DNA of 64,000 bases from an uncultured bacterium (lineage in GTDB: Bacteria; Bacteroidota; Rhodothermia; Rhodothermales; DASSAV01), in contig CBINFS010000003.1 of assembly GCA_966250015.1 (NCBI GenBank), positions 76,047 to 140,046 on the forward strand, given 5' to 3'. Positions 2,417 to 30,586 of this stretch are shown in pieces. The notes under the pieces are model-generated. The model was not told the DNA's origin and searched no databases. It saw only the letters and a program-made list of their open reading frames with translations. Position 1 is the first letter of the stretch; every line of letters begins with the position of its first letter. The position numbers were made by a program, and so were the translations under genes.

Positions 2417-2452
2417 CGGCACTCCTTTATTGGTGCAGTCCTCTCTTTAGAA

Positions 2453-3295: not shown

Positions 3296-3382
3296 TCGTA
3301 CTTTTAGGTATGGAACCTAAGTATCTTCCTGTCGCCGGTGCGAATCCTGCATCGTGCAGTACTCTTTCCAGTAGAAAGTATC

Positions 3383-4381: not shown

Positions 4382-4514
4382 ACAAAAGAATTGACGAACC
4401 GTGTCAATTTCTCCGTGTTAAATCAGGTAGGGGATACGTGCTGTTGAAATGGCTTTAGACCGTATGCTTTTTACATTTATACGGTTGCATGAAGTAATTA
4501 ATTGAGAACCTTAG

Positions 4515-5198: not shown

Positions 5199-5227
5199 GC
5201 AGGGGCTTTCTTTACTGATCTAAACGC

Positions 5228-6268
5228 TTGGTTGAACGGGTGTCAGAACGGATCACGGTTTTCGGCGCAGGGAGCTGGGGTACTGCGCTCGCTATCTCGC
5301 TTGCAGGGACCCATCGTGACGTGATTCTGTGGGCAAGACGTAGCGACGCCGCGTCGTTCATGCAGCAGGAACGCCACAACCCGACGTATCTGCCGGACGC
5401 CATCATTCCGGAAAACGTTCTGATTACGGCGGATCTCGAAACGGCAGCACAAGGAAGAGGCCTCTGGGTAATCGCTACACCGTCGCAATCGGTCCGTGAT
5501 CTGGCGACGCAGCTAATTCCTTTTGCTACGAAGGAAACGACAATTGTTTCGGTGGCAAAGGGGATCGAGAACGGTACACTCCTGACGACCACCGGTGTGC
5601 TGCATGAAGTCTTGTCGGATCGGATTTCAGAAAGCCGGTTAGGCGTGCTGTACGGTCCGAGCCATGCGGAAGAAGTCGCGGTCGGCAAGCCAACGACGCT
5701 GGTCTCGGCAGCCCGTTCGACTAAAACGGCCCGGCACATCCAGAAGGTCTTCATGACCCCGAGACTGCGCGTATACCTGAACCGGGACCTTCTCGGGGTC
5801 GAGATCGGAGGCTCGGTCAAGAACGTGCTCGCAATCGCCACCGGCATTAGTGACGGGATCGGCTATGGCGACAATGCCAAGGCCGCCCTCATAACGCGGG
5901 GCATCACGGAGATGCAGCGGTTAGGAGTGGCGATGGGCGCCGAAGCAGAGACTTTTGCGGGACTGACCGGCATTGGGGATCTCGTCGTGACCTGTACGAG
6001 CAAGCACAGCCGCAACCGCTGGGTCGGCGAACAAATCGGCAAGGGGCGTAGTCTACCTGATGTTGAAAAAGAAATGCGGATGGTGGCGGAGGGGGTTCGA
6101 ACGACGATATCGGTGTCGGAACTTGCCCGCAGATACCGGATTGAGATGCCGATTACCTCAGCGGTCCACGCCATTCTATTTGAGGGGAAAACCCCGGAGG
6201 TTGCCGTAAACGACTTGATGACCAGGTCGGCGAAAACTGAGCACCTGCACGACGTGCTGGAGGAATAA
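5228..6268 (+). CDS. gpsA: NAD(P)H-dependent glycerol-3-phosphate dehydrogenase
   Basis: ITVFGAGSWGTALA Rossmann motif with GpsA-like body; plsY-gpsA adjacency. The start is uncertain (TTG 5228 or GTG 5240). Confidence 0.93.
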   Translation: MVERVSERITVFGAGSWGTALAISLAGTHRDVILWARRSDAASFMQQERHNPTYLPDAIIPENVLITADLETAAQGRGLWVIATPSQSVRDLATQLIPFATKETTIVSVAKGIENGTLLTTTGVLHEVLSDRISESRLGVLYGPSHAEEVAVGKPTTLVSAARSTKTARHIQKVFMTPRLRVYLNRDLLGVEIGGSVKNVLAIATGISDGIGYGDNAKAALITRGITEMQRLGVAMGAEAETFAGLTGIGDLVVTCTSKHSRNRWVGEQIGKGRSLPDVEKEMRMVAEGVRTTISVSELARRYRIEMPITSAVHAILFEGKTPEVAVNDLMTRSAKTEHLHDVLEE

Positions 6269-6337
6269 TTCGATCCGGTGCCATTGTCGGCCTGGTTTTT
6301 GTATCCATACCTGCATGCAAATCAGGTTGGCAATACT

Positions 6338-6994
6338 ATGAATTTACAAGAGCTTACGCAGCTGGTCTCGCTTGGTGAGGGTAAGTTCATCGAGTTCAAG
6401 CGCCAGGTTCCGAAACCGGAAAGGATAGCGAAAGAGATCATTGCGATTGCGAACACGAACGGCGGCAGGCTGTTGCTCGGGGTGGGGGATGACGGAACCA
6501 TCGTCGGCGTGCGTGACGCTGAAGAAGAGGAATACGCGCTGCGTCAAGCCCTCAACGAACACTGTGATCCACCTGTCGAATTCACCACGGTGCGCATCCC
6601 CGTCACGACAAAACGCGAGGTGATCCTCGTTAACGTGCCTGAAAGCCGAAAAAAGCCCCATTTTCTGGTCAATGGGGCAACGAATGGGCGCCGCAGCGCA
6701 TACGTCCGGGTAGACGACAAAAGTGTCGAGGCGAGTAAAGAGGCCGTCCGGCTCATGCGGGCCGAACACCTTTCGGAAGGGGTGGTGTTTGAGTTTGGTG
6801 AGAAGGAGCAGATGCTCATGCGCTACCTCGACCACTACGGCAGGATCAGCGTCGCACAATTTGCAGGTCTGGCCAACGTGCCCATTCGGATCGCCTCTCA
6901 GACACTCGTTCTTCTCACACGTGCGAACGTGCTACGCCTGCACACAGGATTGAAAGAAGATTATTTCACGCTGGCGTACGCGCCATCCGAATAG
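6338..6994 (+). CDS. AlbA_2 (Schlafen-type putative DNA-binding) domain protein with C-terminal winged-HTH-like region
   Basis: LVSLGEGKFIEFKRQVP..IAKEIIAIANTNGGRLLLGVGDDGTIVG matches the AlbA_2/'divergent AAA' signature as I remember it. ATG 6338 is preferred. Confidence 0.65.
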   Translation: MNLQELTQLVSLGEGKFIEFKRQVPKPERIAKEIIAIANTNGGRLLLGVGDDGTIVGVRDAEEEEYALRQALNEHCDPPVEFTTVRIPVTTKREVILVNVPESRKKPHFLVNGATNGRRSAYVRVDDKSVEASKEAVRLMRAEHLSEGVVFEFGEKEQMLMRYLDHYGRISVAQFAGLANVPIRIASQTLVLLTRANVLRLHTGLKEDYFTLAYAPSE

Positions 6995-7021
6995 TCTGCT
7001 TCGTATTCTTATCGCATTGCC

Positions 7022-7047
7022 GATCCGTTCCGGATCTGCCATTTTTT
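7022..7047 (+). terminator. Possible weak terminator after the AlbA_2 gene
   Basis: GATCCG-TTC-CGGATC hairpin (7022-7036), then T6 at 7042-7047. Confidence 0.4.
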
Positions 7048-7124
7048 GACCCGGCGTGACGTTCGGTTGTCATCCGTGTTTTCCTATATTGTCTTCGAAT
7101 GCAATCCGTTATTGTGAAGAATAA

Positions 7125-9473
7125 ATGCCAGTAGTAGACGTCATAGCATTGCACGATACCGCCCGCCGGCGGTATCTCAACTATGCATTATCCGTTATTA
7201 CCAGTCGGGCGCTCCCGGACATTCGGGACGGCTTGAAGCCCGTCCAGCGCCGCATTTTATACGCCATGTACGCCAACCTGAGGCTCTATCCGGAGGGAAG
7301 GTACCGGAAGAGCGCCACCGTTGTTGGTGAGGTGATGGGTAAGTACCATCCACACGGTGACTCCGCGATTTACGACGCGATGGTGCGAATGGCGCAAGAC
7401 TTTTCGCTTCGCGCGCCGCTCGTTGACGGCCATGGCAATTTCGGCTCGCTCGACGGTGACAATGCGGCCGCCATGCGGTACACGGAGGCGAAGCTTCGCC
7501 CCCTCGCCATGGAAATGCTGGACGAGATCAAGAAGCAGACCGTCGCATTTCGACCCAATTTTGACGGTACACTTTCTGAGCCGGTCGTGCTGCCGACCAG
7601 AGTGCCGAACCTGCTCGTCAACGGCACGAGTGGCATTGCGGTAGGCATGGCAACGAGCATCCCCCCGCACAACCTTGGGGAGGTGGTCGACGCGCTCGTA
7701 TACATGATCGGAACACCCGGCGCGACGGTGGAGACGCTGGTCAGGCGGTTCATCAAGGGGCCTGACTTCCCGACCGGCGGCCGCATCCTGAATACGGAAA
7801 AGGAGATCATCGAGACCTATCAGAAAGGCGAGGGAGGGTTTGACCTCCGCGGTGAGTACCGGCTGGAAGGTAAGAGCCACATCATCATCTATTCGATACC
7901 GTACGGTGTGACGAAGGCCGATCTGATCGAAAAGATCGCCGAACACATCGCGAGCGAGAAGGTCCCGCAGATCGTTGACATTCGGGACGAATCGACGGAC
8001 GACGTCAGGATCGTCCTGGAACTCAGGCGGGGGGCGTCGGCCGAGGCGGCCATGGCGTACCTCTTCAAACACACGCCCTTGCAGTCGAGGTTCTACGTTA
8101 ACCTGACGTGCCTTCTGCCGACCGAAAACCCGGAGATTTGCACGCCGGGAAAAGTCGACCTGGTCACGATTCTCCGGCACTTTCTCGATTTCCGACTCGA
8201 CGTTGTAAAACGCCGCCTTCGGTGGGAGCTCGAACAGCTCGAAAAGCGGATCCACATCCTCCGGGGGTTCGAGAAGATTTTCGACGCGCTGGACGAAGCG
8301 ATTAAGCTGATACGGTCGTCAAAGGACAAACCGGACGCTGCGCAACGCCTCATTCACCGCTTCAGAATCGACGAGGAGCAGGCAGATGCCATCCTGGAAA
8401 CCAAGCTCTACAAGCTCTCACAGCTCGAGATCGACGCGATTCGCCGCGAGCTCGAGGAGAAGGAAAAGAGAGCGCAGGAGATCCGAGCATTGCTTGCCGA
8501 CGAGGAAGCGCTCTGGGGTGTCGTTAAAACGGAGCTGCGCGATCTCAAAAAGACGTACGCGGACCCCCGCCGGACTGAAATCGCCGGGCCGGACGCCAAG
8601 CTCGACTACACGGAAGAAGACTACATCATCGACGAAGACGTCTACGTCATGGTCACCCGTGACGGATGGATCAAGCGGCAGCGGTCGTATTCCGAAATTC
8701 AGAACATCCGCGTTCGGGAGGGAGACGAGGTTGGTTGGGTTCTCCCGGGATCGACTCGTTCGACCGTCGGCATCTTCACCAGTTTCGGTAAAGCCTACAC
8801 GATTCGCATCGACGAGCTTCCAAGCACGAGCGGATACGGCGACCCGGTCCAGAAGTATTTCGATTTTTCGGACCGCGAGCAGGCGATCGGGGTCGTTTCA
8901 TTCGACGCGCGAATACTCCCGCAGCCAGTACCCGATCCGGAGTCGGCACTCGAGCTGTTTGGTGAGAATGGCACCGCCGCAACCGATCCCCGTTCTGCCT
9001 ACGTGGTAGCGGTAACTGAGAAAGGGCAGACGTTGCGGCTGCCGATCGACGGTTTTGCGGAGCCTTCCACAAAGGTTGGGCGGACGTTTATGAAGCCCGA
9101 GAAGGGAGACCGCGTGCTCGGCGTAATGGTGGCGGCAGGCAACGAGAACGTTTGCCTCGCATCGCACGAGGGACACGTTTTGATCTTCCCGGTGCATCAG
9201 ATCCCCGTTTTTAAGGGTGCTGCGAAAGGGGTCATTGCGATGAGGCTCGGCAAAACCGATCGCATCATCGGGTTTACGCTTTCGTCGGCGGCGCGAGATG
9301 GACTCGAGATCGTGACGAACAGGGGCCGACGCGAGATCGTCCGTACGACGAAATTTGAGGTGGCGAACCGTGGAAACAAGGGGCGTCAGATCATCAAGCG
9401 CGGACACATCGAGCGCGTCGTCGTACCTCCCGTCGAAATCCGGCTCAACGGGCAGGCGAAAAACGGTGACTGA
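7125..9473 (+). CDS. parC: Type IIA topoisomerase subunit A, ParC-like
   Basis: [21 protein letters not shown] (the Q is typical of ParC; GyrA usually has PVHRR), GKYHPHGD, and AAMRYTE with the catalytic Tyr. There is no GyrA box at the start of the CTD. Length 782 aa. Confidence 0.8.
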
Positions 9474-9519
9474 TCCGGGAATACTGTATTTTTGACAATA
9501 TTGAGTGTATCAAAGTTAG

Positions 9520-11460
9520 ATGGCGGAAGTAGTTGCAACCTATACCGGAAAGGACATCCAGGTCCTCGAAGGCCTCGAGCCGGTCAGGAAACGGCCCGGA
9601 ATGTACATCGGGGGCACCGGTAAGCCTGGGCTTCATCACCTGCTCTGGGAGATCGTGGACAATGCCGTCGACGAAGCGACGAACGGCTTCGCGTCGGTGA
9701 TCGAGGTCACCCTGCACAAGGATGGCAAGAGTGTCACGGTAACCGATAACGGCCGGGGTATTCCCGTTGATATCCATCCAGTCAAGAAGATCCCGACGCT
9801 CGAGCTGATCCTGACGACGCTCCACTCCGGAGGAAAGTTCGATACGTCGAACTACATCACGTCGGGTGGTCTCCACGGCGTCGGGTCGTCGGTCGTGAAC
9901 GCCCTTTCCGAGGAGCTTATTGCGACGATCAAAAAGGACGGCAAGACCTACCAGCAAAAATTCAAGCGCGGCAAGGTTGCGAGTAAGCTCAAGGTCATCC
10001 AGGAAAACTCGCGAGGGTCAGGAACGAGCATCTTTTTCCGCCCGGATCCCGAAATATTCGAATCCACTGAGTTCGATCCAAAATGGATCAGCGAAAACCT
10101 GGAGGTCAAGACCTACCTGAATCGTAACCTCCGGATCCTGTTCATAAACGAGCTGGAAGGAACCCGGCAGGAGTTCCATCACGAAGGGGGCATCCGTGAG
10201 TACCTGGGCCGGCTCGTGCAAGAGATGAAGGTCCGGCAGGTCCACGAGGACATGTTCGTCATCAGCCAGGATTCGCTTCAGAATGGGAGCCGCCTGGAGG
10301 TTGCCTTACAGTGGACGGAATCGACGAAGGAGGAGATTCGTTCGTTCGTAAACGGCATTCCAACGACCGACGGCGGCACTCACGAGCAGGGCCTTCGCGA
10401 TGCGGTCCGAAGCGCCGTGCGGGCATATATGGAAACGCACGAAATGATCCCGAAGAATCTGGACGTTTCGGCGGACGACATCCGGGAAGGCCTCGTCGGG
10501 GTGATCAACCTGTTTATGGTCGATCCCCAGTTTCAGGGACAGACGAAAGAAAAGCTCAACAACCCCTCGGCACGTTCGCTCGTGGTGAGCACGGTTCGCC
10601 TCGAGCTCGAACAGTACTTCAACGCCCACCCGACGACCGGCGAGGCCATTGCAACGCGGGTCATCCAGGCAGCGCGCGCACGCCATGCGAGCCGAACGGC
10701 GGCAAACGCCGTGCGTCGAAAGAGCAGCGTCAGTCACCGATTGAATTTGCCTGGTAAGCTCGCGGACTGCTCGTCGACCGATCCTACCGAATGCGAGCTC
10801 TTCATCGTGGAAGGCGATTCGGCAGGTGGGTCGGCAAAACAGGGGCGAGACCGGCGGTTTCAGGCCATCCTCCCGCTCAGGGGCAAGGTGCTCAACGCGG
10901 AGCAGGCAACGCTTCGAAAGGTGCAGGAAAACAAAGAGCTCTCAAACATTGTCCAGGCACTCGGATGCGGCGTTGGCGAACACATCGACCTGACGAAACT
11001 CCGGTACCACAAGGCGATTCTACTCATGGACGCCGACTCGGACGGGCACCACATTGCGACGCTGCTACTGACGTTCTTCTACCGGTACATGCGTCCGTTG
11101 ATCGAGCAGGGGCACGTGTACATCGCGCAGCCGCCTCTTTACCGGATTGATGTGGGGAAGGAGACGTACTGGGCGCTCGACGATCAGGACCGAGATAAGA
11201 TACTGGCAGACCTCAAGAAGGGGAGGAAGAACCTGAATGCCGACATCCAGCGTTTCAAGGGTCTCGGCGAGATGATGCCGGCTACCCTGAAGGAAACCAC
11301 GCTCGATCCCGCAAAACGTCGGCTTTTACAGGTAACCATACACGACACCGAACGTTTGATCACCGAGCAGATGATCACACAGCTCATGGGTCGCGACACG
11401 TCTGCACGGTATTCCTTCATCATGGATCACGCTGAAGAGGTAGAGGAGCTGGACGTTTAA
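9520..11460 (+). CDS. parE: Type IIA topoisomerase subunit B, ParE-like (GHKL ATPase + TOPRIM)
   Basis: VLEGLEPVRKRPGMYIGGT, LHHLLWEIVDNAVDE, the TOPRIM motif ELFIVEGDSAGGSAKQGRDR, and PLRGKVLN. It lies immediately downstream of the A subunit. Confidence 0.8.
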   Translation: MAEVVATYTGKDIQVLEGLEPVRKRPGMYIGGTGKPGLHHLLWEIVDNAVDEATNGFASVIEVTLHKDGKSVTVTDNGRGIPVDIHPVKKIPTLELILTTLHSGGKFDTSNYITSGGLHGVGSSVVNALSEELIATIKKDGKTYQQKFKRGKVASKLKVIQENSRGSGTSIFFRPDPEIFESTEFDPKWISENLEVKTYLNRNLRILFINELEGTRQEFHHEGGIREYLGRLVQEMKVRQVHEDMFVISQDSLQNGSRLEVALQWTESTKEEIRSFVNGIPTTDGGTHEQGLRDAVRSAVRAYMETHEMIPKNLDVSADDIREGLVGVINLFMVDPQFQGQTKEKLNNPSARSLVVSTVRLELEQYFNAHPTTGEAIATRVIQAARARHASRTAANAVRRKSSVSHRLNLPGKLADCSSTDPTECELFIVEGDSAGGSAKQGRDRRFQAILPLRGKVLNAEQATLRKVQENKELSNIVQALGCGVGEHIDLTKLRYHKAILLMDADSDGHHIATLLLTFFYRYMRPLIEQGHVYIAQPPLYRIDVGKETYWALDDQDRDKILADLKKGRKNLNADIQRFKGLGEMMPATLKETTLDPAKRRLLQVTIHDTERLITEQMITQLMGRDTSARYSFIMDHAEEVEELDV

Positions 11461-11481
11461 CGCAGATGGAGTCTTCCGCAC

Positions 11482-12285
11482 ATGAAAGCAGCCTTCGTGC
11501 AGTACAAACCGGTGTACCTCCAAGTCGATCAAAACCTCGATCGGGTTGAACAGCTCATCGAAGGGATCGACGCCGACTTGGTCGTACTGCCGGAAGTGTT
11601 TGCCACCGGCTATTATTTTAAGGATGCGGAAGACCTGAAAAAGGTGGCGGAGCCGCTCGACGACGGGAAGACGGCCAGACGGCTCGTTCAGTGGGCTGAA
11701 AAAACGGGCGCAACGTTCGTCGCGGGTTTTCCCGAGATCGACGGGGACGAGATATTCAACAGCGCGATGATCGTTTCAACGCAGGGGATCGTCGGGAGCT
11801 ACCGGAAAGTCCACCTCTTTTTTGAGGAGAAGCTTTGGTATTCGCCCGGAAATCTCGGATTTCCCGTTTTCCACGTAACCGACAGGAATGGCGAATCCTA
11901 TCAGCTCGGGGTGATGATTTGCTTTGACTGGTATTATCCCGAATCGGCCCGCAGCCTGGCGCTTGCCGGCGCAGATCTGATCGCCCACCCGTCCAACCTC
12001 GTCCGAAAGGACTGCCCAAGAGCCATGCCCATCCGTGCGCTGGAAAACCACGTGTACACGATCACGGCGAACCGTACTGGCAGAGAGGTGAAAAACGGCT
12101 CGACCCTCGAGTTCATCGGCCAGAGCCTCATTTGCAATCCAGACGGAGACGTACTGGTACAGGCCGGACGTGATGAGGAAACGGTCGGCATCGCCGAATT
12201 TGACGTCACGATGGCGCGTAACCGTCAGATCACGGACCACAACGACCTGCTTGCCGACCGCCGCCCCGATGCCTACGCACTTTAG
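11482..12285 (+). CDS. Carbon-nitrogen hydrolase (nitrilase superfamily)
   Basis: The E-K-C triad contexts are visible: VLPEVF, YRKVHLF, VMICFD. Confidence 0.85.
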   Translation: MKAAFVQYKPVYLQVDQNLDRVEQLIEGIDADLVVLPEVFATGYYFKDAEDLKKVAEPLDDGKTARRLVQWAEKTGATFVAGFPEIDGDEIFNSAMIVSTQGIVGSYRKVHLFFEEKLWYSPGNLGFPVFHVTDRNGESYQLGVMICFDWYYPESARSLALAGADLIAHPSNLVRKDCPRAMPIRALENHVYTITANRTGREVKNGSTLEFIGQSLICNPDGDVLVQAGRDEETVGIAEFDVTMARNRQITDHNDLLADRRPDAYAL

Positions 12286-12294
12286 ACTCTCGTA

Positions 12295-13278
12295 TTACGG
12301 AACTGCCGGTGACGGGATGCCCAGCACCTCGTGAAGCTTAGAGCGGATTCTGGCGGCGGGATCGGGATGGGTATCGGGCACGAAGGTCTGGCCCGTGACC
12401 GTTTCGTACAGCTCGATGTAGCGGTGTGACACCTCGACCCTGAAATCGTCCGGAAGGTCGGGAAGAACCTGGCCCTCCTTACCCTGAAAATCGTGGGCCA
12501 TCAGCCATTCGCGGACGAACTCTTTCGATAGCTGTCGTTGAGGCTCATCCCGTCGCAGCAGGTCTTCGTACGTATCCGCGTAGAAGTACCGTGAGGAATC
12601 CGGCGTGTGCACCTCGTCGATCAGGACAATGCGGCCGTCTGTCGTCCGGCCGAATTCGTATTTGGTATCGACGAGGATGAGCCCGTGCTCGGCGGCCATT
12701 TGCGTACCGCGCTCGAAAAGCCTGAGTGCCATGTCCTCGAGCGTATCGAAATCCTCCGCACTGATGATTTCCCGCTCGATAGCTTCCTCGCGGCTGACGT
12801 CTTCGTCGTGTCCCTCCGCCGCCTTCGTTGCAGGGGTCAGGATGGGCTCAGGCAGCTTGCTGTTCTGCTTCAGGCCCCCCGGCAGCGCCTTCCCACACAA
12901 CTCGCGTTTCCCGGCCTTGTACTCTCGCCAGGCATGCCCGGCAAGGTACCCGCGGACGACGAATTCAATGGGGAAGGGGGTGCACCGGAGGGCTAGCGTC
13001 ACGTTTGGATCGGGCACGTCGAGTACGGCGTTGGGCACGACGTCAGCCGTGTGCTCGAAAAAGTATGCCGCGAGCTGGTTGAGGACCTGACCCTTGAACG
13101 GTATGGGCTGCTTCAGAATGTAATCAAACGCCGAGATGCGGTCGGTAGTAATCAGTATCAGACGGTCGCCGTAGCGGTAGGTATCTCGAACCTTGCCTCT
13201 ATATCGTTCTCCAAACTCCTTGAAGTCCGTTTCGGCGAGCGTACGGCTCATCTGGTTGCGGATGAGGGCATCTTCCAT
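12295..13278 (-). CDS. purC: Phosphoribosylaminoimidazole-succinocarboxamide synthase (long form)
   Basis: GKVRDTY..LILITTDRISAFD and LVDTKYEFG motifs. The start could be the internal Met (MSRTL). Confidence 0.92.
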   Translation of the reverse strand: MEDALIRNQMSRTLAETDFKEFGERYRGKVRDTYRYGDRLILITTDRISAFDYILKQPIPFKGQVLNQLAAYFFEHTADVVPNAVLDVPDPNVTLALRCTPFPIEFVVRGYLAGHAWREYKAGKRELCGKALPGGLKQNSKLPEPILTPATKAAEGHDEDVSREEAIEREIISAEDFDTLEDMALRLFERGTQMAAEHGLILVDTKYEFGRTTDGRIVLIDEVHTPDSSRYFYADTYEDLLRRDEPQRQLSKEFVREWLMAHDFQGKEGQVLPDLPDDFRVEVSHRYIELYETVTGQTFVPDTHPDPAARIRSKLHEVLGIPSPAVP

Positions 13279-16552: not shown

Positions 16553-16569
16553 TCTGCAAATTGGAGAAA

Positions 16570-16604
16570 CCGGGGGCAGCCAGTTGCGACTGCCTCCGGT
16601 TTTT
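16570..16604 (+). terminator. Rho-independent terminator after the ABC ATPase gene
   Basis: CCGGGGGCAG (16570-79) pairs with CTGCCTCCGG (16590-99), including one G-U pair. T5 follows. Confidence 0.8.
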
Positions 16605-16616
16605 CGTAGCTTCCAA

Positions 16617-16642
16617 TGTTTGATAATTATTCTTATCAAACA
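16617..16642. repeat. Perfect 26-bp palindrome, 10-bp arms + 6-bp spacer (dif-like recombinase core-site candidate)
   Basis: TGTTTGATAA-TTATTC-TTATCAAACA. The inner ATAA-N6-TTAT matches the conserved dif core. It lies 30 nt upstream of the recombinase ATG. Confidence 0.6.
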
Positions 16643-16671
16643 TTGATTATCACCAATCCACGGTGCTTTTG

Positions 16672-17622
16672 ATGGCGTCCGAACATCCCATACAACGATA
16701 CCAGGCAGAGATTACGGTTGGAACTGAGTCCAGCGGTCTCGACCTGCTCTCTGCCTTCTTGCAACGGTTCGACCGCGAGCAGACACGCCGCGCATACCGA
16801 AACGACATCTCGCACTTTTTTGAAAGCGAATACGTTTTGCTCGACGACGTTCGGCGAGTCTCGTTCCTTCACGTCAACGAGTACATCGCCCGATTGGAAG
16901 CCGCAGGATTGAAAGCGACGACGATCAAACGAAGGATTGCCGCATTGCGTGGATTTTTCGACTGGCTACTCGCTCTCGAACTCGTCGAAAGAAATCCGGT
17001 GAACCGGCAGTTCGTTCGGCGTGTACGCACCGTCAGGCGCCAGGATCAGACGATCTTTGTGCTCACCGCTCAGCAAGCCGAGGCGTTACTCGCCGCAACG
17101 GAGCTGTCCGGCGAAGCAGCAATACGTGACCGCACGCTGATGACCACGATGATCCATTGTGTGTTGAGACGATCGGAAGCGGCTGCAATGGACGTCGAAC
17201 ACATCAGACCACTCGGCCGCTACTGGGTGCTCGATTTGCCCAAAACGAAAGGCGGCGCCGACCAGTACGTAAAAGTGCCGACGCACGTGGTGGACGAGAT
17301 CGAAGCAATGAAAAGCCACTACGGGATCACGTCGGGGCCTCTCTGGCGTTCGTTCAGCCCCCGAAGCTTTGGTAAACGGCTCACCCCGCACTCGATCTAC
17401 CGGATCGTAAAACAGGCTGCCATACGGGCTGGCTTATCAAACTCTATCGGCGCACACACGCTGCGACATTCCGGATGCACACTGGCCATCGAGGCCGGCG
17501 CCACCCTTCAGCAGGTCCAAGCTCACGCAAGGCACAAAAACCTGGAAACCACGATGGTCTACATCCACCAGCGCGACCGGCTACGCGACAGCGCCGCGGA
17601 CTATATCCATATAAAAAAGTGA
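16672..17622 (+). CDS. Xer-type tyrosine recombinase/integrase
   Basis: N-terminal SAM-like core-binding domain (TRRAYRNDISHFF, TIKRRIAALRGFFDWL). Catalytic residues R (RRSE), K (KTKGG), HxxR (HTLRHSG), H (HKNLETT) and Y (MVYIH) are all present. Confidence 0.9.
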   Translation: MASEHPIQRYQAEITVGTESSGLDLLSAFLQRFDREQTRRAYRNDISHFFESEYVLLDDVRRVSFLHVNEYIARLEAAGLKATTIKRRIAALRGFFDWLLALELVERNPVNRQFVRRVRTVRRQDQTIFVLTAQQAEALLAATELSGEAAIRDRTLMTTMIHCVLRRSEAAAMDVEHIRPLGRYWVLDLPKTKGGADQYVKVPTHVVDEIEAMKSHYGITSGPLWRSFSPRSFGKRLTPHSIYRIVKQAAIRAGLSNSIGAHTLRHSGCTLAIEAGATLQQVQAHARHKNLETTMVYIHQRDRLRDSAADYIHIKK

Positions 17623-17685: not shown

Positions 17686-17735
17686 AAAAAAAAGCGAACC
17701 TCGGAGGCGGAAACCTTCTGGCTCCACCTCCGAGG
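17686..17735 (-). terminator. Rho-independent terminator of the eRF1-like gene
   Basis: A 9-bp stem CCTCGGAGG (17699-17707) pairs with CCTCCGAGG (17727-17735). On the minus strand it is followed by T8 (complement of A8 at 17686-17693). Confidence 0.7.
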
Positions 17736-17758
17736 CTCATTTCGGTTGATTAGTTTGA

Positions 17759-19885: not shown

Positions 19886-20380
19886 CTATTTGTCTACTTC
19901 ATCTTCGAACGGCACCAGATACGTCGGGAGCGCCTTGATGAAGCGGGTTTCCTTGTACGAGCTGAGCACGATGCTCGTGCTGGTCCCGTGGACGCCAGGC
20001 CACGACTGAAGCTCGAGGAGGAAGTGTTCCAGCGACGTCGTATCGCGCGTGCGAACCTTGAGAAGATGCGACCCCTGCCCGGTAATGAGGTGCACTTCGA
20101 GGATCGATTCGTTTTCGGAAGCGAGTCTTACAAATTCATCGTAGTTTTCCTTCCCGTCGACGTTTATCAGAATAAACGCCGTAATATCCATCCGCAGGCG
20201 TTTATGGTCGACCACGGCGTAATAGCCCTGAATGACGCCGCGCTCTTCGAGCTTGCGCATTCGCTCACTCACGGAAGGCAGGGACAGGCCCACTTCCTCA
20301 GCGATGCGATTGCGTTTCATCCTGCCGTTCATTTGTAGCAGGTTTAGGATCTGGGCATCGATTTCGTCGATACGTTCCAT
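19886..20380 (-). CDS. Lrp/AsnC-family transcriptional regulator
   Basis: N-terminal HTH (IDAQILNLLQMNGRMKRNRIAEEVGLSLPSVSERMRKLEE) plus a RAM/ligand-binding domain. Confidence 0.92.
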   Translation of the reverse strand: MERIDEIDAQILNLLQMNGRMKRNRIAEEVGLSLPSVSERMRKLEERGVIQGYYAVVDHKRLRMDITAFILINVDGKENYDEFVRLASENESILEVHLITGQGSHLLKVRTRDTTSLEHFLLELQSWPGVHGTSTSIVLSSYKETRFIKALPTYLVPFEDEVDK

Positions 20381-20574
20381 GTTTTTATCAGAAATTTGGT
20401 GTCACTGAGTGCATGAAGGAGACCGGCCATCGATCCCTGCAAAGGTAATTTATTTAGTCAATGTACTGATTGGAAGCGATACCAGTGGCCGATTTTGGGT
20501 GAAATCGGAACGATTTCCTTATTTATTTCAAGCCCGTCGGCTATACTCCCCTGAAGTAAGAGACAGATTGCGCC

Positions 20575-21492
20575 ATGCCCTCAAAGGATTATCCAATCCT
20601 TATCATCACGGGTCCCACGGCTGTCGGCAAGACAGACCTCAGCATCCAGGTCGCCGAAGCGTGGGGTGGCGAAATCATTTCGGCCGACAGCAGGCAAATA
20701 TTCCGGGGTTTGGATATTGGAACGGCCAAGCCTGATCCGTCCCAATTGACGCGTGTCCGTCATCATTTCATTGACGAGCTTGAACCGGGTGAGCCCTTTT
20801 CCGCCGGAGCGTTCGCCAGAGCGGCCTACGAACGGATCGAGGACATCCTTTCCCGAAACCGGGTCCCCGTCGTCACGGGAGGCTCGACGCTTTACCTTCA
20901 GGCGCTTCAGTTTGGACTGGCAGACGTGCCTCCCGCTGATCTGGAGGTCAGAGCCGGGCTGCAACAGCGGATCATTCAGGGAGAAGCGGACGACTTGTAC
21001 CGCGAGCTTCAACGTGTCGACCCGGCTTCAGCGGCCACAATGGACAAAACGAAGACCCAGCGGCTCGTCCGGGCACTCGAAGTCTACTACGCAACCGGCA
21101 AGCCCCTGTCGAGCTACTTCCAAGACGCACCACCCCTACCCTACACATTCCGAACGATCGTTCTGATCCGGGAGCGAAAGGAGCTTTATCGTCGAATTGA
21201 TGAACGCGTTGAAGAGATGCTTTCCGCCGGCCTCGTCGACGAAGTTCGAACGCTGCTCGATCGGGGCGTGGATCCTACATTGAATGCCCTGCAAACCATC
21301 GGCTATAAGGAGCCTTTGCAGTACATCCGTGGCGAAATCGGCTACCAGGAGATGGTTGACCTGCTCAAACGTAACACGCGAAGGTATGCCAAACGCCAGA
21401 TCACCTGGTTTCGGCGGTTTCCTTCTTACGAGTGGATCGATGCGTCGGACGTCGACGCCTTCTGGACGGCAGTCCATTCGATGCGGCCCTAG
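20575..21492 (+). CDS. miaA: tRNA dimethylallyltransferase
   Basis: P-loop ITGPTAVGKT, then ISADSRQIFRGLDIGTAKP. Confidence 0.95.
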   Translation: MPSKDYPILIITGPTAVGKTDLSIQVAEAWGGEIISADSRQIFRGLDIGTAKPDPSQLTRVRHHFIDELEPGEPFSAGAFARAAYERIEDILSRNRVPVVTGGSTLYLQALQFGLADVPPADLEVRAGLQQRIIQGEADDLYRELQRVDPASAATMDKTKTQRLVRALEVYYATGKPLSSYFQDAPPLPYTFRTIVLIRERKELYRRIDERVEEMLSAGLVDEVRTLLDRGVDPTLNALQTIGYKEPLQYIRGEIGYQEMVDLLKRNTRRYAKRQITWFRRFPSYEWIDASDVDAFWTAVHSMRP

Positions 21493-21914
21493 GAATCGGG
21501 ATACCTGAAACCCAGCCGAACGCGACGACCGTCATTTTCGTACGCTACCTCGTCGGCCATCGACTCCATCAGAAAAATGCCACGTCCGGAAGGCCTGATC
21601 AGGTTTTCTTCGTCGAGTGGATTTCGGATCTCCTTTCTGACAAAACCCTCTCCCTCATCTTCTACGGAAACCCTGACCTCGCGGCCGTTGACGGAAATGT
21701 CGAGCGTCACGTATCTGGATTCGTCAAACCGGTTGCCATGTTTCATGGCGTTGGTGACCGCCTCGGTAACGGATAGCACGACGCGGTAAACGAAGTCGTC
21801 GTCCGGGATGTGGTCAATCAGAAATGCCTGGGAGTCATCAACGATCTGGTCGAGGTACGCCAGGGAGCTGGGAACCCGAATTGAAAAACGTTCTGGCTTA
21901 GCCCCGGTTGTCAT
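21489..21914 (-). CDS. RsbW/SpoIIAB-type anti-sigma factor serine kinase (HATPase_c_2)
   Basis: N-box-like TEAVTNAMKHGN, G-box region EDEGEGF..SGRGIFLM. About 141 aa. No STAS partner is present in the window. Confidence 0.8.
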   Translation of the reverse strand: MTTGAKPERFSIRVPSSLAYLDQIVDDSQAFLIDHIPDDDFVYRVVLSVTEAVTNAMKHGNRFDESRYVTLDISVNGREVRVSVEDEGEGFVRKEIRNPLDEENLIRPSGRGIFLMESMADEVAYENDGRRVRLGFRYPDS

Positions 21915-23220
21915 AAGTGGAATCGAGCGTGGAATCAGTTTCGAATGTAAGGATTAGTTCAGGCTCAAGTAGACCGGCGAGCACCCCTGCAATCTTTTTT
22001 CTGTCGAAGCGATTAACAAAGCCAAAATCAGGTTCCGGCAGGGTGCCTGATTCCCAGTGCTCGAACAGGACCTCGATTTGCGTGCTAACAGCATCGACGT
22101 TATCCGGTTCCGCGATCAAGGAAGCCCCGTATGCTTCGAGCGTCCTGCGTGCCGTTCCTTCCGGTACGAGGCCGAGAATCGGCTTCCTCGTACCCACGTA
22201 CTCGTAGAGCTTTCCCGTCGAAATACCTTCCGAACCCGGTCTTTTCCCGACGGTCAGCCATAACGCGTCGGCTCCAATCAGAAACTCCACCACCTCGTGA
22301 TGCTCGAGGTATCCAGTGCATTTTACGACCGTATCTAATCCCAGCTCTTTTACCAGGTCCCCCATGTAGGGCGGGACGAGCCCTACAAAAACGGCTTCGA
22401 TGCGGCTTTTAATATCCGGCCTACGTGAGATAAGGGCAGCCAGCGCCCGGAGAAACGTGTCAGGAGTTTGCACGTCGTAGAAGACACCTGTGTACACCAG
22501 CCGCATCTTCCCGTCACTTCGATTTGCCTGCACCTGGCCGTCGAAGTCATCGGGGTCGAAGCCCTGAGGCAGGACGCGAACGTCCGGGTGAGTCTCCCCA
22601 TTCCGTTCTAACAACGAATCCCGGATGTGATCGTTGATTGTCGTCGAAACGGACGACCGGCCGAGCACCCACTTTTCAAGCCGCTGATTGATAGCCCTGT
22701 GCAGGCGCGTCGGGTACCAGTGCCGGGGGTTGCCAACCCAATCGTCGCGGAAATCGGTTACCAATCGGATACCACTCCATTTGCTGAGGTAGGCGCCGAT
22801 CAGATGCGCGGTATAGGGCGGCGCTGACACAAAGATGGCATCGAACGGTTTGGACCGCAGGATGGATTTCCCTTTCCGGATCGCGGGGATGAACCAGCCG
22901 ATCTTGTTGTCCGGAACGAATACGAGCTGGCCAATCTTGCTCAACAGGTTTCGGGTGGGCTCAGCCGGCAACCCGACCGTTTTCTGCCTGCCGAACAATC
23001 GGGTTGGGTCCCAGCTAAACGTCCGATGTACTGTAGCGCCACTTCTATTCACCTCCTCCTCAAGCCCACGATCAAAAGCAAAATAGCCGCCCGGATGGAC
23101 GGTCAACACTTCTACTTCCCATCCATATTCCGGCAGGTACTTCACGAACTTCGCGACTCGCTGCACCCCGCTCAACCCCATGGGAGGGAAATAGTAGGCG
23201 ATAACGAGTACACGCTTCAT
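21898..23220 (-). CDS. Glycosyltransferase, GT4-like (GT-B fold)
   Basis: N-terminus MKRVLVIAYYFPPMGLSGVQRVAKF and a C-terminal GT1/GT4-type domain (E..GKLYEY). It overlaps the downstream kinase gene by 17 nt. Confidence 0.8.
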   Translation of the reverse strand: MKRVLVIAYYFPPMGLSGVQRVAKFVKYLPEYGWEVEVLTVHPGGYFAFDRGLEEEVNRSGATVHRTFSWDPTRLFGRQKTVGLPAEPTRNLLSKIGQLVFVPDNKIGWFIPAIRKGKSILRSKPFDAIFVSAPPYTAHLIGAYLSKWSGIRLVTDFRDDWVGNPRHWYPTRLHRAINQRLEKWVLGRSSVSTTINDHIRDSLLERNGETHPDVRVLPQGFDPDDFDGQVQANRSDGKMRLVYTGVFYDVQTPDTFLRALAALISRRPDIKSRIEAVFVGLVPPYMGDLVKELGLDTVVKCTGYLEHHEVVEFLIGADALWLTVGKRPGSEGISTGKLYEYVGTRKPILGLVPEGTARRTLEAYGASLIAEPDNVDAVSTQIEVLFEHWESGTLPEPDFGFVNRFDRKKIAGVLAGLLEPELILTFETDSTLDSTYDNRG

Positions 23221-23232
23221 CGCGAAGAAATT

Positions 23233-24294
23233 CTAAAGGCAGATCAGGTTTTTGACAGCTCTGCTCAGGTTTTCGCAGCCGTCTTCGGTGATCACGACCA
23301 TGTCTTCAATGCGCACGCCAAAAGAATCCGGAATGTAGACGCCCGGCTCGATCGTGACTACGGCGCCCGCTGGGATCTCGAACTCGGCATCCTTCGAAAT
23401 CCGGGGCCATTCGTGAATCTGAAGGCCGACGCCGTGCCCGAGGCTGTGATTGAAGTGGTCCCCGTAACCGGCTTCCTGTATGACGGAGCGGGCGGCGAAA
23501 TCAAGGTCCTTGGCACGCATTCCGGCTCTCGCCTGCCGGATCGCTTCGTTCTGAGCCTTGAGGACGACCTCGTAAACGGCGCGAGCTTCGGGGGAAGGCT
23601 GCCCGACGCAAACCGTACGGGTCATGTCCGAGGCATAACCGTCCAAGAAACAACCGATGTCGAGGACGATGAGGTCGCCGGGCACGATTTTTTTGTCGGA
23701 TGGACGGGCATGTGGCAGCGCACCGTTCAGGCCCGATGCAACGACCGGATCGAACGACATCTTCTCTGCCCCACGTTTCAAGTGTTCGTAAACGATCTCG
23801 GCCGCTATCTCCTTCTCCGTCACACCCGGCTGTATAAATCCCAGAATCTTTTCAAAAACAGATTCCGTGATTCGCAGGGCTTCGGTAATGCGCCCAATCT
23901 CGTCCTTGTCCTTTACCGCAACTTTTCTCGTGAGCAAATCCGGGGAGGGGTGCCAGATCACGCCCGGAATTAAGCTGGTCAGCTGCACGAATGTGCTGTG
24001 CAGGATGTGGTCGGATTGAAAGAGAATGTGCTCGTTTGAAAGCAGACGTGACGAGGCGAGGTGTTCGAACAGGTTGTCCGAGGTGATGTGAATCTCTGCC
24101 CCGGATACCTCGCGTGCGGCCTGAAGTAAATATCGACCGTCGGAGAAAAAGTGGGCGCTCGATTGCGTAACGAGTAGAATGCCGTTAGAGCCCGTGAAGC
24201 CGCACGCCCATCGTACGTCCGGGAGGAAGGTCAGGAGCACGCCGTCGGCGCCGTGCTCCCGTACGAGCGCCCTGACTAAATTGATGCGATCCAT
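23233..24294 (-). CDS. pepP: Xaa-Pro aminopeptidase (M24B)
   Basis: Creatinase-like N-domain plus the M24 metal ligands: DIGCFLDGYASDMTRT, HSLGHGVGLQIHE, TIEPGVY. Confidence 0.9.
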   Translation of the reverse strand: MDRINLVRALVREHGADGVLLTFLPDVRWACGFTGSNGILLVTQSSAHFFSDGRYLLQAAREVSGAEIHITSDNLFEHLASSRLLSNEHILFQSDHILHSTFVQLTSLIPGVIWHPSPDLLTRKVAVKDKDEIGRITEALRITESVFEKILGFIQPGVTEKEIAAEIVYEHLKRGAEKMSFDPVVASGLNGALPHARPSDKKIVPGDLIVLDIGCFLDGYASDMTRTVCVGQPSPEARAVYEVVLKAQNEAIRQARAGMRAKDLDFAARSVIQEAGYGDHFNHSLGHGVGLQIHEWPRISKDAEFEIPAGAVVTIEPGVYIPDSFGVRIEDMVVITEDGCENLSRAVKNLICL

Positions 24295-24303
24295 AGCCGT
24301 TCC

Positions 24304-25824
<1,521 letters not shown>

Positions 25825-25850
25825 TCACGGGAAAAGGAATCGACGGTCAT

Positions 25851-26672
25851 TCATAATTTGACGAGGGCTCGCAACCGCCTGACCTCGTGCGGAAACAACT
25901 TACGCCACTTGCCTCGCCTGACTCCTTTTGTGGTCAATCCAGCATAGTTGAGCCGTTCAAGGTGAATGACTTCGTGTCCCAGATGTTCGATCATCCGCCT
26001 GACTTGCCGGTTTCGGCCTTCATGAAGCTGGACGGCGATCTCGTTGAAAACGCCGGGCGTTACATAGTCCACCCGATCGACCTTTGCGGGGCCGTCTTCG
26101 AGCACCACACCATTCTTGAGATCCTGAAGATCGTTAGGCGTAATGTCGTCACGCGTCCTGACGAGGTACAATTTGTCCACCTTGTACCGTGGATGCATGA
26201 GCCGGTGGGCCAGGTCACCGTCGTTGGTCAAGAGCAGGACGCCCTCCGTATTACGATCGAGCCGGCCGACGGGAAACAGTGTACTTTTTGTCTCTTCCGG
26301 CAGGTCAATCAGATCCAACACTGTTTTCCGGCCTTTCTCGTCACTGCGCGTCGTTATGGTATCGGAGGGTTTGTTCAGCAGGATGTAAACGAATTTCCCC
26401 GGAGAAATGACGCGACCGTTGACCTCCACCTTGTCTCCCTTGAAGACCTTGGCGCCTAACTCCGTGACCGTCTGGTCGTTCACCTTGACGAGGCCCTGTT
26501 CGATCAGCTCGTCCGCTTTCCTCCGCGAGCATACGCCGGCACGCGCGATGTACCGATTAAGCCGAACGCCCTCCTCGGCATCGATTTCCATCGAGCGTTC
26601 GGATTGTATTTCGGGTTTTCGTCCCCGACCTGGTCTGCCTGGCCGTCTACCTTTTTTGTGTTGATCCATCAA
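25851..26672 (-). CDS. rluB: 23S rRNA pseudouridine synthase, RluB/RsuA family, with an R/G/K-rich N-terminal tail
   Basis: S4 domain RLNRYIARAGVCSRRKADELI and catalytic GRLDRNTEGVLLLTNDG. Confidence 0.92.
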   Translation of the reverse strand: MMDQHKKGRRPGRPGRGRKPEIQSERSMEIDAEEGVRLNRYIARAGVCSRRKADELIEQGLVKVNDQTVTELGAKVFKGDKVEVNGRVISPGKFVYILLNKPSDTITTRSDEKGRKTVLDLIDLPEETKSTLFPVGRLDRNTEGVLLLTNDGDLAHRLMHPRYKVDKLYLVRTRDDITPNDLQDLKNGVVLEDGPAKVDRVDYVTPGVFNEIAVQLHEGRNRQVRRMIEHLGHEVIHLERLNYAGLTTKGVRRGKWRKLFPHEVRRLRALVKL

Positions 26673-26715
26673 TTTTGGTTATTCGTTTCCAAACCTGCAA
26701 ACCAACCAGCAGAAA

Positions 26716-27378
26716 TCAGGATTCCGCTTGCAACGCCTGTCCGGTTTCACTTTCGGTTTCGTCGATGCGCAACGAAAACAACCTCGCCCTTTCCCGATTG
26801 AACGACGGGTCATTCAGCAGCTCCTCGATGTCTCTCAGCTGTGGGAGCTCGTCGAGGCTGCCGATTCCAAGCTGGTCGAGAAATCGTGGGGTTGTGCCGT
26901 ACAATAACGGGCGTCCAAGCGATTCACTTCTACCAACGATCTCGATCAAACCCAGCTCCATTAGCCGACGTATTGCGTAGTCCGCGTCCACACCCCGTAT
27001 GAAGTCAACTTCCGGGCGAGTAACCGGTTGCCTGTACGCAACGACTGCGAGGGTTTCCATGAGCGACGGGGAAAGACGCCTGTTCTTGCTCTCGTTGAAA
27101 AACACCCTCAGGAATGGGGCCATACCGGGTACGGTGGCCATCCGGTAGCCGCCCGCCCACTTGTGAATGCGGAAAGGACGGCCGGTCCGGGCATATTCGG
27201 AATTGATCCGCTCGATGGACTCTCCCACCTCCTGTCCGGTTGGACGCTGGCGCCCGGTCACTTCCACATAGACGTCGAGCATCATCTCTTCCGTGACGGG
27301 TTCGTCTGCCGCAAATATGAGCGCCTCGACGACGGTTTCGAAATCGGTACTGATGAGGTTGGAATCCATTCTATACAA
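26716..27378 (-). CDS. scpB: Segregation and condensation protein B
   Basis: VEALIFAADEPV.. ScpB signature; it follows scpA. Confidence 0.9.
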   Translation of the reverse strand: MYRMDSNLISTDFETVVEALIFAADEPVTEEMMLDVYVEVTGRQRPTGQEVGESIERINSEYARTGRPFRIHKWAGGYRMATVPGMAPFLRVFFNESKNRRLSPSLMETLAVVAYRQPVTRPEVDFIRGVDADYAIRRLMELGLIEIVGRSESLGRPLLYGTTPRFLDQLGIGSLDELPQLRDIEELLNDPSFNRERARLFSLRIDETESETGQALQAES

Positions 27379-27389
27379 TTACGCACTAA

Positions 27390-28157
27390 TCACGCAGCAG
27401 CACCGTTGCTGAGCCACTCCTTCTTTTGTTCGACCTTTCCGCTGGGCTCCCTCCTGCTCACATAAAAATCCAGAATCCGGGTGGACTCCGTCAGGAGCCA
27501 GATTCGTTCCGCACGCGCCAGCTCCAGCACTGCCAGGAAAGTTGTAATAATAAAGGGCTTGGATCGTCCTTTCACCAGCGATGCAAACGAGTGTTTCGGC
27601 TTTATCGCCAGCTGAGCCAGTACGTATTCCTGTTGATCCTCGACGGTGTATTCGAACCGTCTAACTTCGTGTACCGGTTCTTCGGACGCCCTCGTTAGCA
27701 CCCGGCGAAGCGCCGTAACGAGGTCGGATACGGAGACGTCGAGCCGGACGTCCATTTCGTCGAGGAATTGCCGTGCCTCCCCCGACGCAAGCCCTCTGGT
27801 AAAGTGCTCGGTACGTCTCTCGTGGTATTCCGAAAGCTGCTGCGCTCCCTCCTTGAACCGTACGTATTCTAGCAGCCGGTCAACGAGCTCTCGACGAGGA
27901 TCGACCGGTTCGCCTTCTTCATCCGTCTCCTGCACCGGAAGCAACATCTTCGCCTTTATCCGGATCAGCAGAGCCGCCATGTAAATGAAGTCGCCTACCC
28001 CATCCAGGTCCACCCGCTCGAGGTGCCGCACGTATTCGAGGAACTCGTCAGCGATCTGAGCAACGGGTATGTCGTAGATGTCGAGCTCGTCCCTCCGGAT
28101 GAAAAAAAGCAGCAGGTCGAGCGGACCTTCAAACTCCTGCAGCTGGATGCGATACAT
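27390..28157 (-). CDS. scpA: Segregation and condensation protein A (kleisin)
   Basis: FEGPLDLLLFFIRRDELDIYDIPVAQI, the canonical ScpA N-terminus. Confidence 0.93.
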   Translation of the reverse strand: MYRIQLQEFEGPLDLLLFFIRRDELDIYDIPVAQIADEFLEYVRHLERVDLDGVGDFIYMAALLIRIKAKMLLPVQETDEEGEPVDPRRELVDRLLEYVRFKEGAQQLSEYHERRTEHFTRGLASGEARQFLDEMDVRLDVSVSDLVTALRRVLTRASEEPVHEVRRFEYTVEDQQEYVLAQLAIKPKHSFASLVKGRSKPFIITTFLAVLELARAERIWLLTESTRILDFYVSRREPSGKVEQKKEWLSNGAAA

Positions 28158-28192
28158 GTAGGCTTATTTTTTATGGCAGATCTGCTAACCAG

Positions 28193-29122: not shown

Positions 29123-29171
29123 GTGCGAAAGGAGAGGTTGCTAAATGTGAGGAAATACGTGGAAAGCCCGA

Positions 29172-30431: not shown

Positions 30432-30524
30432 CGCACGAATCTCAAAAAAGTCAGGTTAACCCCCTATCCCAATGTACGCCGGCCAGCCATTCAAAACGCT
30501 GACGCGCCGGTTTTAGTGGATAAT

Positions 30525-30557
30525 CAAAAGGCGAGAGCCGTCGTACAGCGCTCGCCT
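30525..30557 (-). terminator. Rho-independent terminator after pnp
   Basis: Minus strand: AGGCGAG..(15-nt loop)..CTCGCCT, followed by TTTTGATT. Confidence 0.6.
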
Positions 30558-30586
30558 GATTTGATCGTAGGCACTCCGGCAGGGCA

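Follow-up and report, generated by a model that had tools for sequence, protein, structure and literature searches.

The stretch of DNA examined here, 64,000 nucleotides of contig CBINFS010000003.1 from an uncultured bacterium of the order Rhodothermales and referred to as a whole as the window, carries a tyrosine recombinase gene that is directly preceded by a palindrome. A first-pass annotation made from the letters alone had taken this palindrome for a relative of dif, the site of chromosome-dimer resolution, paired with a recombinase of its own near a replication terminus.

A palindrome next to a recombinase gene

The palindrome TGTTTGATAA-TTATTC-TTATCAAACA is found at 16617-16642 as the first-pass annotation had it, though it is longer than described there. 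The perfect inverted repeat extends over 32 bp in a 13-6-13 arrangement, with arms that are 100% complementary and a spacer of 6 nt (Table 1). It is intergenic and has the architecture of a dif-type site, namely inverted arms of about 11-13 bp around a centre of 6-8 bp in non-coding DNA. With a tolerance of up to three mismatches it is still the sole match in the 64-kb window, and 100 shuffles yielded no match at all.

The gene that follows is listed as an open reading frame (ORF) beginning with GTG, 16663-17622; the start conserved among its homologues is the ATG at 16672 (M4, which is invariant). From here the full palindrome is 26 nt away and its inner part, ending at 16642, 29 nt. The product is a tyrosine site-specific recombinase by its catalytic domain (Phage_integrase, PF00589, 84.7 bits with a cut-off of 27.1) and its N-terminal SAM-like domain (Phage_int_SAM_1, PF02899, 46.3 bits with a cut-off of 22.3), more precisely a 'simple' two-domain tyrosine recombinase of the Xer type. 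R169, K196, H265, R268, H291 and Y300, which we take to be the complete R-K-H-R-H-Y catalytic set already noted at this locus, are invariant in 24 family sequences, and their equivalents are invariant in 74.

The gene starts in a crowded place. A hairpin followed by a T-run at 16564-16605 probably terminates transcription of the ugpC-like ABC ATPase gene upstream, and a simple terminator scan did not call it. Only 66 nt of intergenic sequence separate this hairpin from the ATG, and the site fills most of them. As both the site and the promoter of the recombinase gene have to lie within this gap, the site must overlap the promoter. A candidate -35 element, TTGATA, falls within the left arm, and a spacing of 19 nt separates it from a candidate -10 element, GATTAT, that lies just outside the right arm. 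This pair is a weak candidate for the recombinase promoter; a sigma-70 scan reported no plus-strand promoter at its thresholds. Since the promoter must share the gap with the site, occupancy of the site would probably also repress the recombinase gene, as a side effect. Past the end of the gene, a second hairpin (17696-17738) is probably a terminator common to the recombinase gene and its convergent neighbour.

Conservation of site and gene across Rhodothermales

For comparison we used 80 genome loci (L001-L080), each from a different contig and with flanks of up to 10 kb per side, which together with the window makes 81. Their contig labels read Rhodothermales, Rhodothermia, Rhodothermaceae, Rubricoccaceae, Longimonas, Roseithermus, Bacteroidota/Bacteroidetes or uncultured bacterium. 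Across these loci and the listed database homologues the recombinase family spans 54-71% identity; among the 120 database matches listed, sequences are 60-71% identical to the window recombinase, in addition to one identical copy. The 80 loci hold one copy each, and their 1.29 Mb of flanking sequence yielded no other tyrosine recombinase.

A single GATAA-N6-TTATC core lies upstream of the orthologue in 73 of the 81 loci, with a spacer of 6 nt in all of them, where chance would provide about 0.04 such cores per 20 kb. The pairing of a dif-like site with its own recombinase, first claimed for one stretch of DNA, is thereby seen to be conserved across the order. The approximate consensus reads yCTACtTyc-GATAA-CTRTTM-TTATC-grAaGTAGr. 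Its asymmetric spacer, CTRTTM, is conserved; seen from the gene, it has one orientation in 51 sites and the other in 22. The outer arms vary by lineage (TTCC, GTTT as in the window, GTAT/GTAC, TCCCC, CTGT) and are complementary within each site. Complementarity between left and right arms exceeds the shuffled expectation at arm positions 6-10 and 12, with z-values of 3.6-8.8 that shared ancestry inflates, and is at chance level from position 13. As the arms covary out to position 12, the constrained unit is a 12-6-12 site, which is as large as the core site of a tyrosine recombinase. The fact that the two arms of one site stay complementary indicates that both are read alike, and the sequences thus argue for one protein species binding both.

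The distance between site and start codon ranges from 3 to 3938 nt with a median of 52 nt. It is at most 100 nt in 44 sites, 351-900 nt in nine loci and more than 900 nt in three. The variable distance, the flipped spacer and the intervening ORFs all point to genetic linkage and not to a fixed promoter geometry. This bears directly on the alternative, offered by the first-pass annotation itself, that the palindrome is only an autoregulatory operator, bound by a recombinase homodimer at its own promoter, and no recombination substrate. Such a role would suit the promoter overlap in the window as well as the short distances in 44 of 73 loci. It accounts poorly, however, for the 12 loci in which the site lies 350-3938 nt away, sometimes with a gene between or on the opposite strand, and for a spacer orientation that flips relative to the gene. 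An operator would have no need of a 6-bp centre that is conserved and asymmetric, and there is no reason to expect one exactly at the switch of skew and of polar words of the FtsK-orienting polar sequence (KOPS) type that is described below for some 55 genomes. We therefore regard an operator as insufficient on its own and this explanation as very unlikely; an autoregulatory role alongside recombination is possible but secondary.

Apart from one locus with two sites (L059, see below), there is one clearly site-like copy per locus of up to 21 kb, and the few other core matches with one mismatch lack arm symmetry. Accessory half-sites beside the core were also considered. TTATC is mildly enriched on the gene side (12 versus about 3 expected per 60 nt) and takes no fixed position, so we rejected these copies as accessory sites.

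Probable position at the replication terminus

In the window the GC skew is positive over 1-16 kb and mostly negative over 20-56 kb. To compare loci, each was oriented by its recombinase gene, in which case a change from plus to minus corresponds to terminus polarity on either strand. The left flank has the higher skew in 41 of the 47 loci with enough flank (means +0.020 versus -0.028, Wilcoxon p 1e-10), so that the terminus-like position proposed for the site is borne out by a local change of sign. With 1-kb binning, all nine populated bins to the left have a positive mean skew and all ten to the right a negative one, and the cumulative skew maximum therefore falls at the site. A regression per gene separates the effect of the side, 0.020 +/- 0.002, from that of the coding strand, 0.016. 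Mean skew to the left and to the right is +0.035 and -0.002, respectively, for plus-strand genes, and +0.006 and -0.036 for minus-strand genes. Locally, that is for flanks of up to 10 kb, the site thus sits at a skew shift point, as is typical of dif. Unrelated metagenomic copies of the same 10-6-10 arms served as a negative control and lack the switch (10/17, p 0.4).

An unbiased count of all 7- and 8-mers in direction toward and away from the site gave a second kind of polarity. The most polar words are rich in G: GGGGAGG (185:22 toward:away), GGGGGAGG (60:1) and GGGGAGGG (67:5). All three fit GGGNAGGG, which in E. coli is the KOPS consensus and has the same polarity relative to dif. Pooled over the loci, GGGNAGGG occurs 87 times on the plus and 10 times on the minus strand on the left, and 21 and 73 times, respectively, on the right, in genes of either strand. 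The strand switch falls into the 2-kb bin that holds the site, and the pooled polarity reaches its peak, 85.6%, when the switch point is placed at the site itself (offset 0). Copies directed toward the site outnumber those directed away in 55 of 58 loci and the reverse is seen in none; in the window, 11 of 12 copies point toward it. KOPS-like words converging on the site, as had been suggested for a genuine dif, are thus present, and with them a hallmark of dif-type sites.

A further strongly polar word, GTTATTGC (extended form CCGTTATTGCAA), likewise converges on the site and is found 36 times on the plus and 4 times on the minus strand on the left, and 4 and 62 times on the right, irrespective of gene strand and often between genes. 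It could be a Chi-like, an architecture-imparting or a promoter-related element. In seven loci including the window (17636-17647, minus strand), TTGCAATAAC[AG]G lies within about 25 nt after the recombinase stop codon. The heptamer GCTGGTG, with which Chi of E. coli begins, is also skewed toward the site (146:59 in the flanks of L001-L080).

Gene orientation contributes little to this picture. The convergent switch reported for the window does exist there, with 12 of 15 genes on the plus strand up to 17622 and almost all on the minus strand from there to 44.8 kb, but it does not hold as a feature of the clade, in which orientation is only weakly convergent (236+:202- on the left, 139+:228- on the right). 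Such a weak bias cannot account for the ratios of the polar words, and the call of a terminus therefore rests on skew and polar words. Another neighbour once thought meaningful, a type IIA topoisomerase pair resembling ParC and ParE, is indeed encoded in the window (Table 1). Near the site, the A subunit is found in one and the B subunit in five of the 80 loci. We hence rejected a link to the module and consider the pair incidental. The flanking genes are of the housekeeping kind, among them purC, miaA, infB, pnp, rpsA and those of tRNA synthetases. The product of the convergent neighbour (17759-18970, minus strand) matches the model of the AOC03_06830-family ribosome hibernation factors, presumably Balon-like, with 145.6 bits, below the cut-off of 330; homologues of this gene flank the recombinase in 17 of 80 loci.

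A recombinase outside the named Xer families

With the curated NCBIfam models, the recombinase scores far below the cut-off throughout: 124.6 bits for XerC (TIGR02224, cut-off 335.15), 118.9 for XerD (TIGR02225, 329.6), 113.1 for archaeal XerA (NF040815, 220) and 42.7 for XerS (NF003462, 267). XerH, for which there is no curated model, was compared by sequence: the match to 5jjv_A reaches 30.3 bits and the protein has 316 aa, as opposed to 354-362 aa in XerH. Since the thresholds for XerC, XerD, XerA and XerS are all missed, the recombinase is, judged by its sequence, a new Xer-like lineage outside any named Xer family. The nearest solved Xer sequences (XerD, XerA and XerH) give only 30-49 bits. 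A confident AlphaFold model (predicted local distance difference test 83.5) has XerA as its best fold match, yet Brujita Int, lambda Int, XerD, XerH and Cre fit it about as well as XerA does. Identity is roughly 16-21% for all of these but Cre, for which no value is given here, and the fold search did not tell subfamilies of tyrosine recombinases apart. The best sequence match in the PDB is 9i5v_14 (E 3e-13, residues 70-301, chain of 401 aa), deposited as 'Ribosome-associated translation inhibitor RaiA', a name ill-suited to a sequence that resembles tyrosine recombinases.

A probable dedicated dimer-resolution system

We consider it likely, and say so with good confidence, that the palindrome of 32 bp serves a Rhodothermales bacterium as the dif-type site at which chromosome dimers are resolved, and that the adjacent gene encodes the dedicated Xer-like recombinase of this site. 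Several points weigh against this. In the window itself, the cumulative skew has its maximum at about 20 kb, some 3.4 kb to the right of the site. The loci are not fully independent, as partial synteny shows (miaA in 60 and purC in 32 of the 80 loci), and the evidence from skew, copy number and recombinases spans the 64-kb window and flanks of up to 10 kb. Last, the recombinase stays under every curated Xer threshold applied and its fold lies at least as near to lambda Int or Cre as to Xer proteins, so that the assignment to dimer resolution is drawn from context alone.

How does the pair compare with the Xer systems known so far? The canonical XerC/XerD-dif system of E. coli, B. subtilis and other Bacteroidota shares the inner ATAA-N6-TTAT, the 6-bp centre, the position at the skew shift, the polarity of GGGNAGGG KOPS-type words and a two-domain protein of about 300 aa. 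It differs in using two paralogous recombinases on an asymmetric site with the conserved XerD arm TTATGTTAAAT, whereas here the arms are alike and of XerC type; moreover, the canonical genes are not normally adjacent to dif. The right arm had initially been likened to XerD arms, but TTATCAAACAT agrees with TTATGTTAAAT at only 7 of 11 positions. The commonest arm in the clade, ACTTCCGATAA, is identical at 9 of 11 positions to the XerC/CodV arm of B. subtilis, ACTTCCTAGAA, and shares CCGATAA with Frankia, both known from the dif survey by Kono et al. (PMC3025954). On account of the 9 matches in 11, the site looks like two XerC-type arms.

This likeness also feeds a different explanation, in which the site is a dif processed by canonical XerC and XerD encoded elsewhere, and the adjacent recombinase has another role or acts as a heteromeric partner. 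The arm type TTATGTTAAAT is that of E. coli and of Bacteroidetes entries in the same survey, and other Bacteroidota have XerC/XerD together with an asymmetric dif (PMC3025954). Identical and covarying arms are, however, an ill fit for two different binding proteins; the linkage of site and gene is kept across the order, and no XerD-type arm lies at or near the polarity switch. A separate canonical dif, which the first-pass annotation had named as a finding that would count against the site, is missing from flanks of up to 10 kb: when ATAA-N6-TTATGTTAAAT was searched for across the 1.29 Mb, allowing two mismatches at most, the only matches were two palindromic sites of the kind described here. 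A weak and indirect further point is that Kono et al. surveyed only genomes chosen for XerCD orthologues and that neither Salinibacter nor Rhodothermus appears in the tables (PMC3025954). We judge this explanation to be unlikely, and hold to a dedicated recombinase acting on the palindrome.

A single recombinase gene side by side with its site is the layout of XerS/difSL and XerH/difH (PMC5357621, PMC9765430). XerS/difSL of streptococci and lactococci (PMC1914069, PMC2965235, PMC5357621) further resembles the pair in its terminus position and converging polar words, and is guided by FtsK. XerS itself is a protein of about 356 aa from a different lineage, difSL is 31 bp long with unequal arms and an 11-bp centre, in contrast to the symmetric 12-bp arms and 6-bp centre seen here, and the polar words of Lactococcus are A-rich heptamers, whereas ours belong to the G-rich GGGNAGGG class. 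XerH/difH of Helicobacter and Campylobacter (PMC3325230; 5JK0, 5JJV) likewise combines a single recombinase with a site near the gene, whose near-palindromic arms are bound by one protein, but sequence similarity to XerH is very low and the difH arms (AGTTATGAAAA) are unrelated. Archaeal XerA/dif (PMC2958812; 4A8E) consists of a single recombinase and a 28-bp site of the ATAA-N6-TTAT type, and provides the best fold match; it was reported to be independent of FtsK, with the gene unlinked to the site. XerL/dif of Legionellales (PMC9765430), recently recognised and a likeness by description only, also pairs a single recombinase with an uninterrupted palindromic site at the terminus and was partly revealed by an integrated element. 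XerL is without sequence homology to XerC, XerD, XerS or XerH (PMC9765430), and in L. pneumophila more than 400 kb separate xerL from dif, unlike the adjacent pair described here. Our search of one literature library found no description of Xer/dif for Rhodothermales, Rhodothermus or Salinibacter, and the supplements of PMC8138268 mention neither of the two genera.

Insertions at the site and the same arms elsewhere

Some loci show what may happen to such a site over time. In L013 and L034, about 50-70 nt separate the gene from a site whose right arm is TTATCGTACATTA. In the related loci L036 and L040, a complete site with right arm TTATCATACAT is followed by an insertion of about 0.75 kb, in which an HNH-type ORF runs on the opposite strand, and then by an orphan TTATCGTACATTAAGA directly before the gene. 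This orphan matches the right arm of the uninterrupted L013 and L034 exactly. Integrative elements that exploit Xer (IMEX) integrate by exchange within the site, and the arrangement in L036 and L040 is suggestive of a similar event, in which a small circle with one good arm would have been integrated by exchange within the central region. A NUMOD4/HNH_3 ORF of 180-230 aa, on either strand, is found between site and recombinase in about ten loci and is absent from the window (Table 1). L059 has two sites 390 bp apart, at 7944-7969 and 8327-8360. One, with the spacer CAGTTC, is perfect. In the other the left arm is degenerate and the spacer reads GAACTG, the reverse complement. The recombinase gene lies 1.6 kb off, beyond an unannotated ORF of 375 aa. 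The pair may represent an inversion or what is left of an insertion.

Beyond the clade, a metagenome scan for the most common arm variant, CTTCCGATAA-N6-TTATCGGAAG, matched at least 120 contigs, only one of which (L175) is of Rhodothermales type. Most matches are unrelated hairpins with arbitrary loops, some of them followed by T-runs, and about 25 have a Xer-like recombinase, of diverse kinds, within 600 bp. Identical 10-6-10 arms with unrelated spacers are found about 0-600 bp from diverse tyrosine recombinases in L105, L108, L113, L115, L131, L136, L146, L148, L187 and L191, on contigs of 46-64% GC. Where tblastn aligned them, these recombinases are 26-33% identical to the window protein, and five of them gave NCBIfam matches, all below the Xer cut-offs. 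L115 has three copies of the arms, with different spacers, within 4.2 kb.

The many hairpins among these matches recall another explanation, a structural element such as a terminator or a hairpin in the 5'-untranslated region, or a chance feature without any link to the recombinase. We give it next to no credence: no match is expected in the window by chance, the GATAA/TTATC core is invariant in 73 lineages and the spacer conserved, which a hairpin loop would not need, and the terminus signals of skew and polar words speak against it.

That unrelated metagenomic contigs carry these arms beside Xer-like recombinases of diverse kinds is in keeping with a further possibility, namely that gene and site form an integrated mobile element with integrase and att site, or an invertible switch. 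Tyrosine recombinases beside their sites are typical of mobile elements, and the degenerate second site with inverted spacer in L059 can be read in the same way. Against this, there is one copy per locus amid housekeeping genes such as purC, miaA, infB and pnp, in partly conserved synteny across the order; the listed family members remain 54-71% identical to the window protein; and, L059 aside, each locus has a single clearly site-like copy. The flanks of the 80 loci contain no other mobile-element genes. An IMG/VR scan for CTTCCGATAA-N6-TTATCGGAAG returned 0 matches and hence no sign of phage-borne copies. A mobile element or switch appears highly improbable to us, and a chromosomal dif-type site with its own recombinase remains the reading we pursue.

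Table 1. Positions of the features discussed, in the window unless a locus is named.
Feature	Position	Strand	Remarks
dif-type core recombination site (putative)	16614..16645	none	13-6-13 repeat, unique in window, conserved upstream of orthologue
Left arm CAATGTTTGATAA	16614-16626		
Central region TTATTC	16627-16632		
Right arm TTATCAAACATTG	16633-16645		
Comparatively constrained 12-6-12 part	16615-16644		left/right arm covariation
Xer-like tyrosine recombinase gene, 316 aa, presumed cognate of the site	16672..17622	+	Pfam domains, invariant R-K-H-R-H-Y columns
Left-flank KOPS-class words GGGNAGGG	2107..12978	+	3/3 copies (2107, 2213, 12971) on + strand, toward site
Right-flank KOPS-class words GGGNAGGG	20073..60841	-	8/9 copies on - strand, toward site; exception 23942 (+)
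Hairpin and T-run	16564..16605	+	I6: 16-nt arms, 88% complementary, 10-nt loop, then TTTTTC
Hairpin between recombinase gene and convergent gene	17696..17738	none	I10: 16-nt arms, 88% complementary, 11-nt loop
Type IIA topoisomerase A/B pair (ParC/ParE-like)	7125-9473 and 9520-11460	+	A subunit passes PRK05561
L036, complete site	9113-9146		
L036, orphan right arm	9894-9909		
L040, complete site	3982-4015		
L040, orphan right arm	4759-4774		
NUMOD4/HNH_3 ORF	L008 9430-9978; L016 2882-3457; L024 187-804; L009 1012-1629; L038 9360-10004	recombinase strand	
NUMOD4/HNH_3 ORF	L032, L036, L040, L063	opposite strand	
NUMOD4/HNH_3 ORF, fused to recombinase N-terminus	L057 8642-10084; P0085; P0115		

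Proposed mechanism and significance

How such a system might work can be sketched from the mechanisms of canonical Xer, of Cre and of XerH. From these we infer binding, catalysis, FtsK dependence, homomeric action and autoregulation. Each of the two near-identical 12-bp arms would be bound by one recombinase monomer. Once a chromosome dimer has formed, a KOPS-reading translocase (FtsK) moving on the converging GGGNAGGG-type words would join the sister sites at the septum, where a homotetramer would swap two pairs of strands in turn across the 6-bp centre and thus turn the dimer into monomers. The asymmetric spacer CTRTTM would be the only source of polarity in this scheme and probably sets both the alignment of the synapse and the order of strand exchange.

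We go one step further, if only with a slight leaning in its favour, and propose that Rhodothermales, perhaps all Rhodothermota, have a previously undescribed single-recombinase Xer system. It would be made up of a recombinase lineage of about 316 aa, a symmetric 12-6-12 site of XerC type with an asymmetric centre, and KOPS of the GGGNAGGG type. The site would double as an integration point for small HNH/NUMOD4 elements, and in unrelated phyla the same arms would serve further Xer-like recombinases that belong to no class so far.

Single-recombinase Xer systems are few, namely XerS, XerH, XerA and XerL, and each of them has informed our view of ordered strand exchange and of its control by FtsK. 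The module in Rhodothermales brings together features that have not been seen in combination before: near-symmetric XerC-type arms, a conserved asymmetric centre, tight linkage to the gene and KOPS of the E. coli type. It would be a clean model for polarity set by the spacer alone, and it fills a gap left by dif surveys that were limited to genomes with XerCD orthologues. For genomes and metagenome-assembled genomes of Rhodothermales the site would provide an exact marker of the terminus, and it is a possible integration hotspot for small mobile elements. If the broader proposal is true, the arms shared with unrelated phyla imply that further modules of the same kind are still to be recognised.

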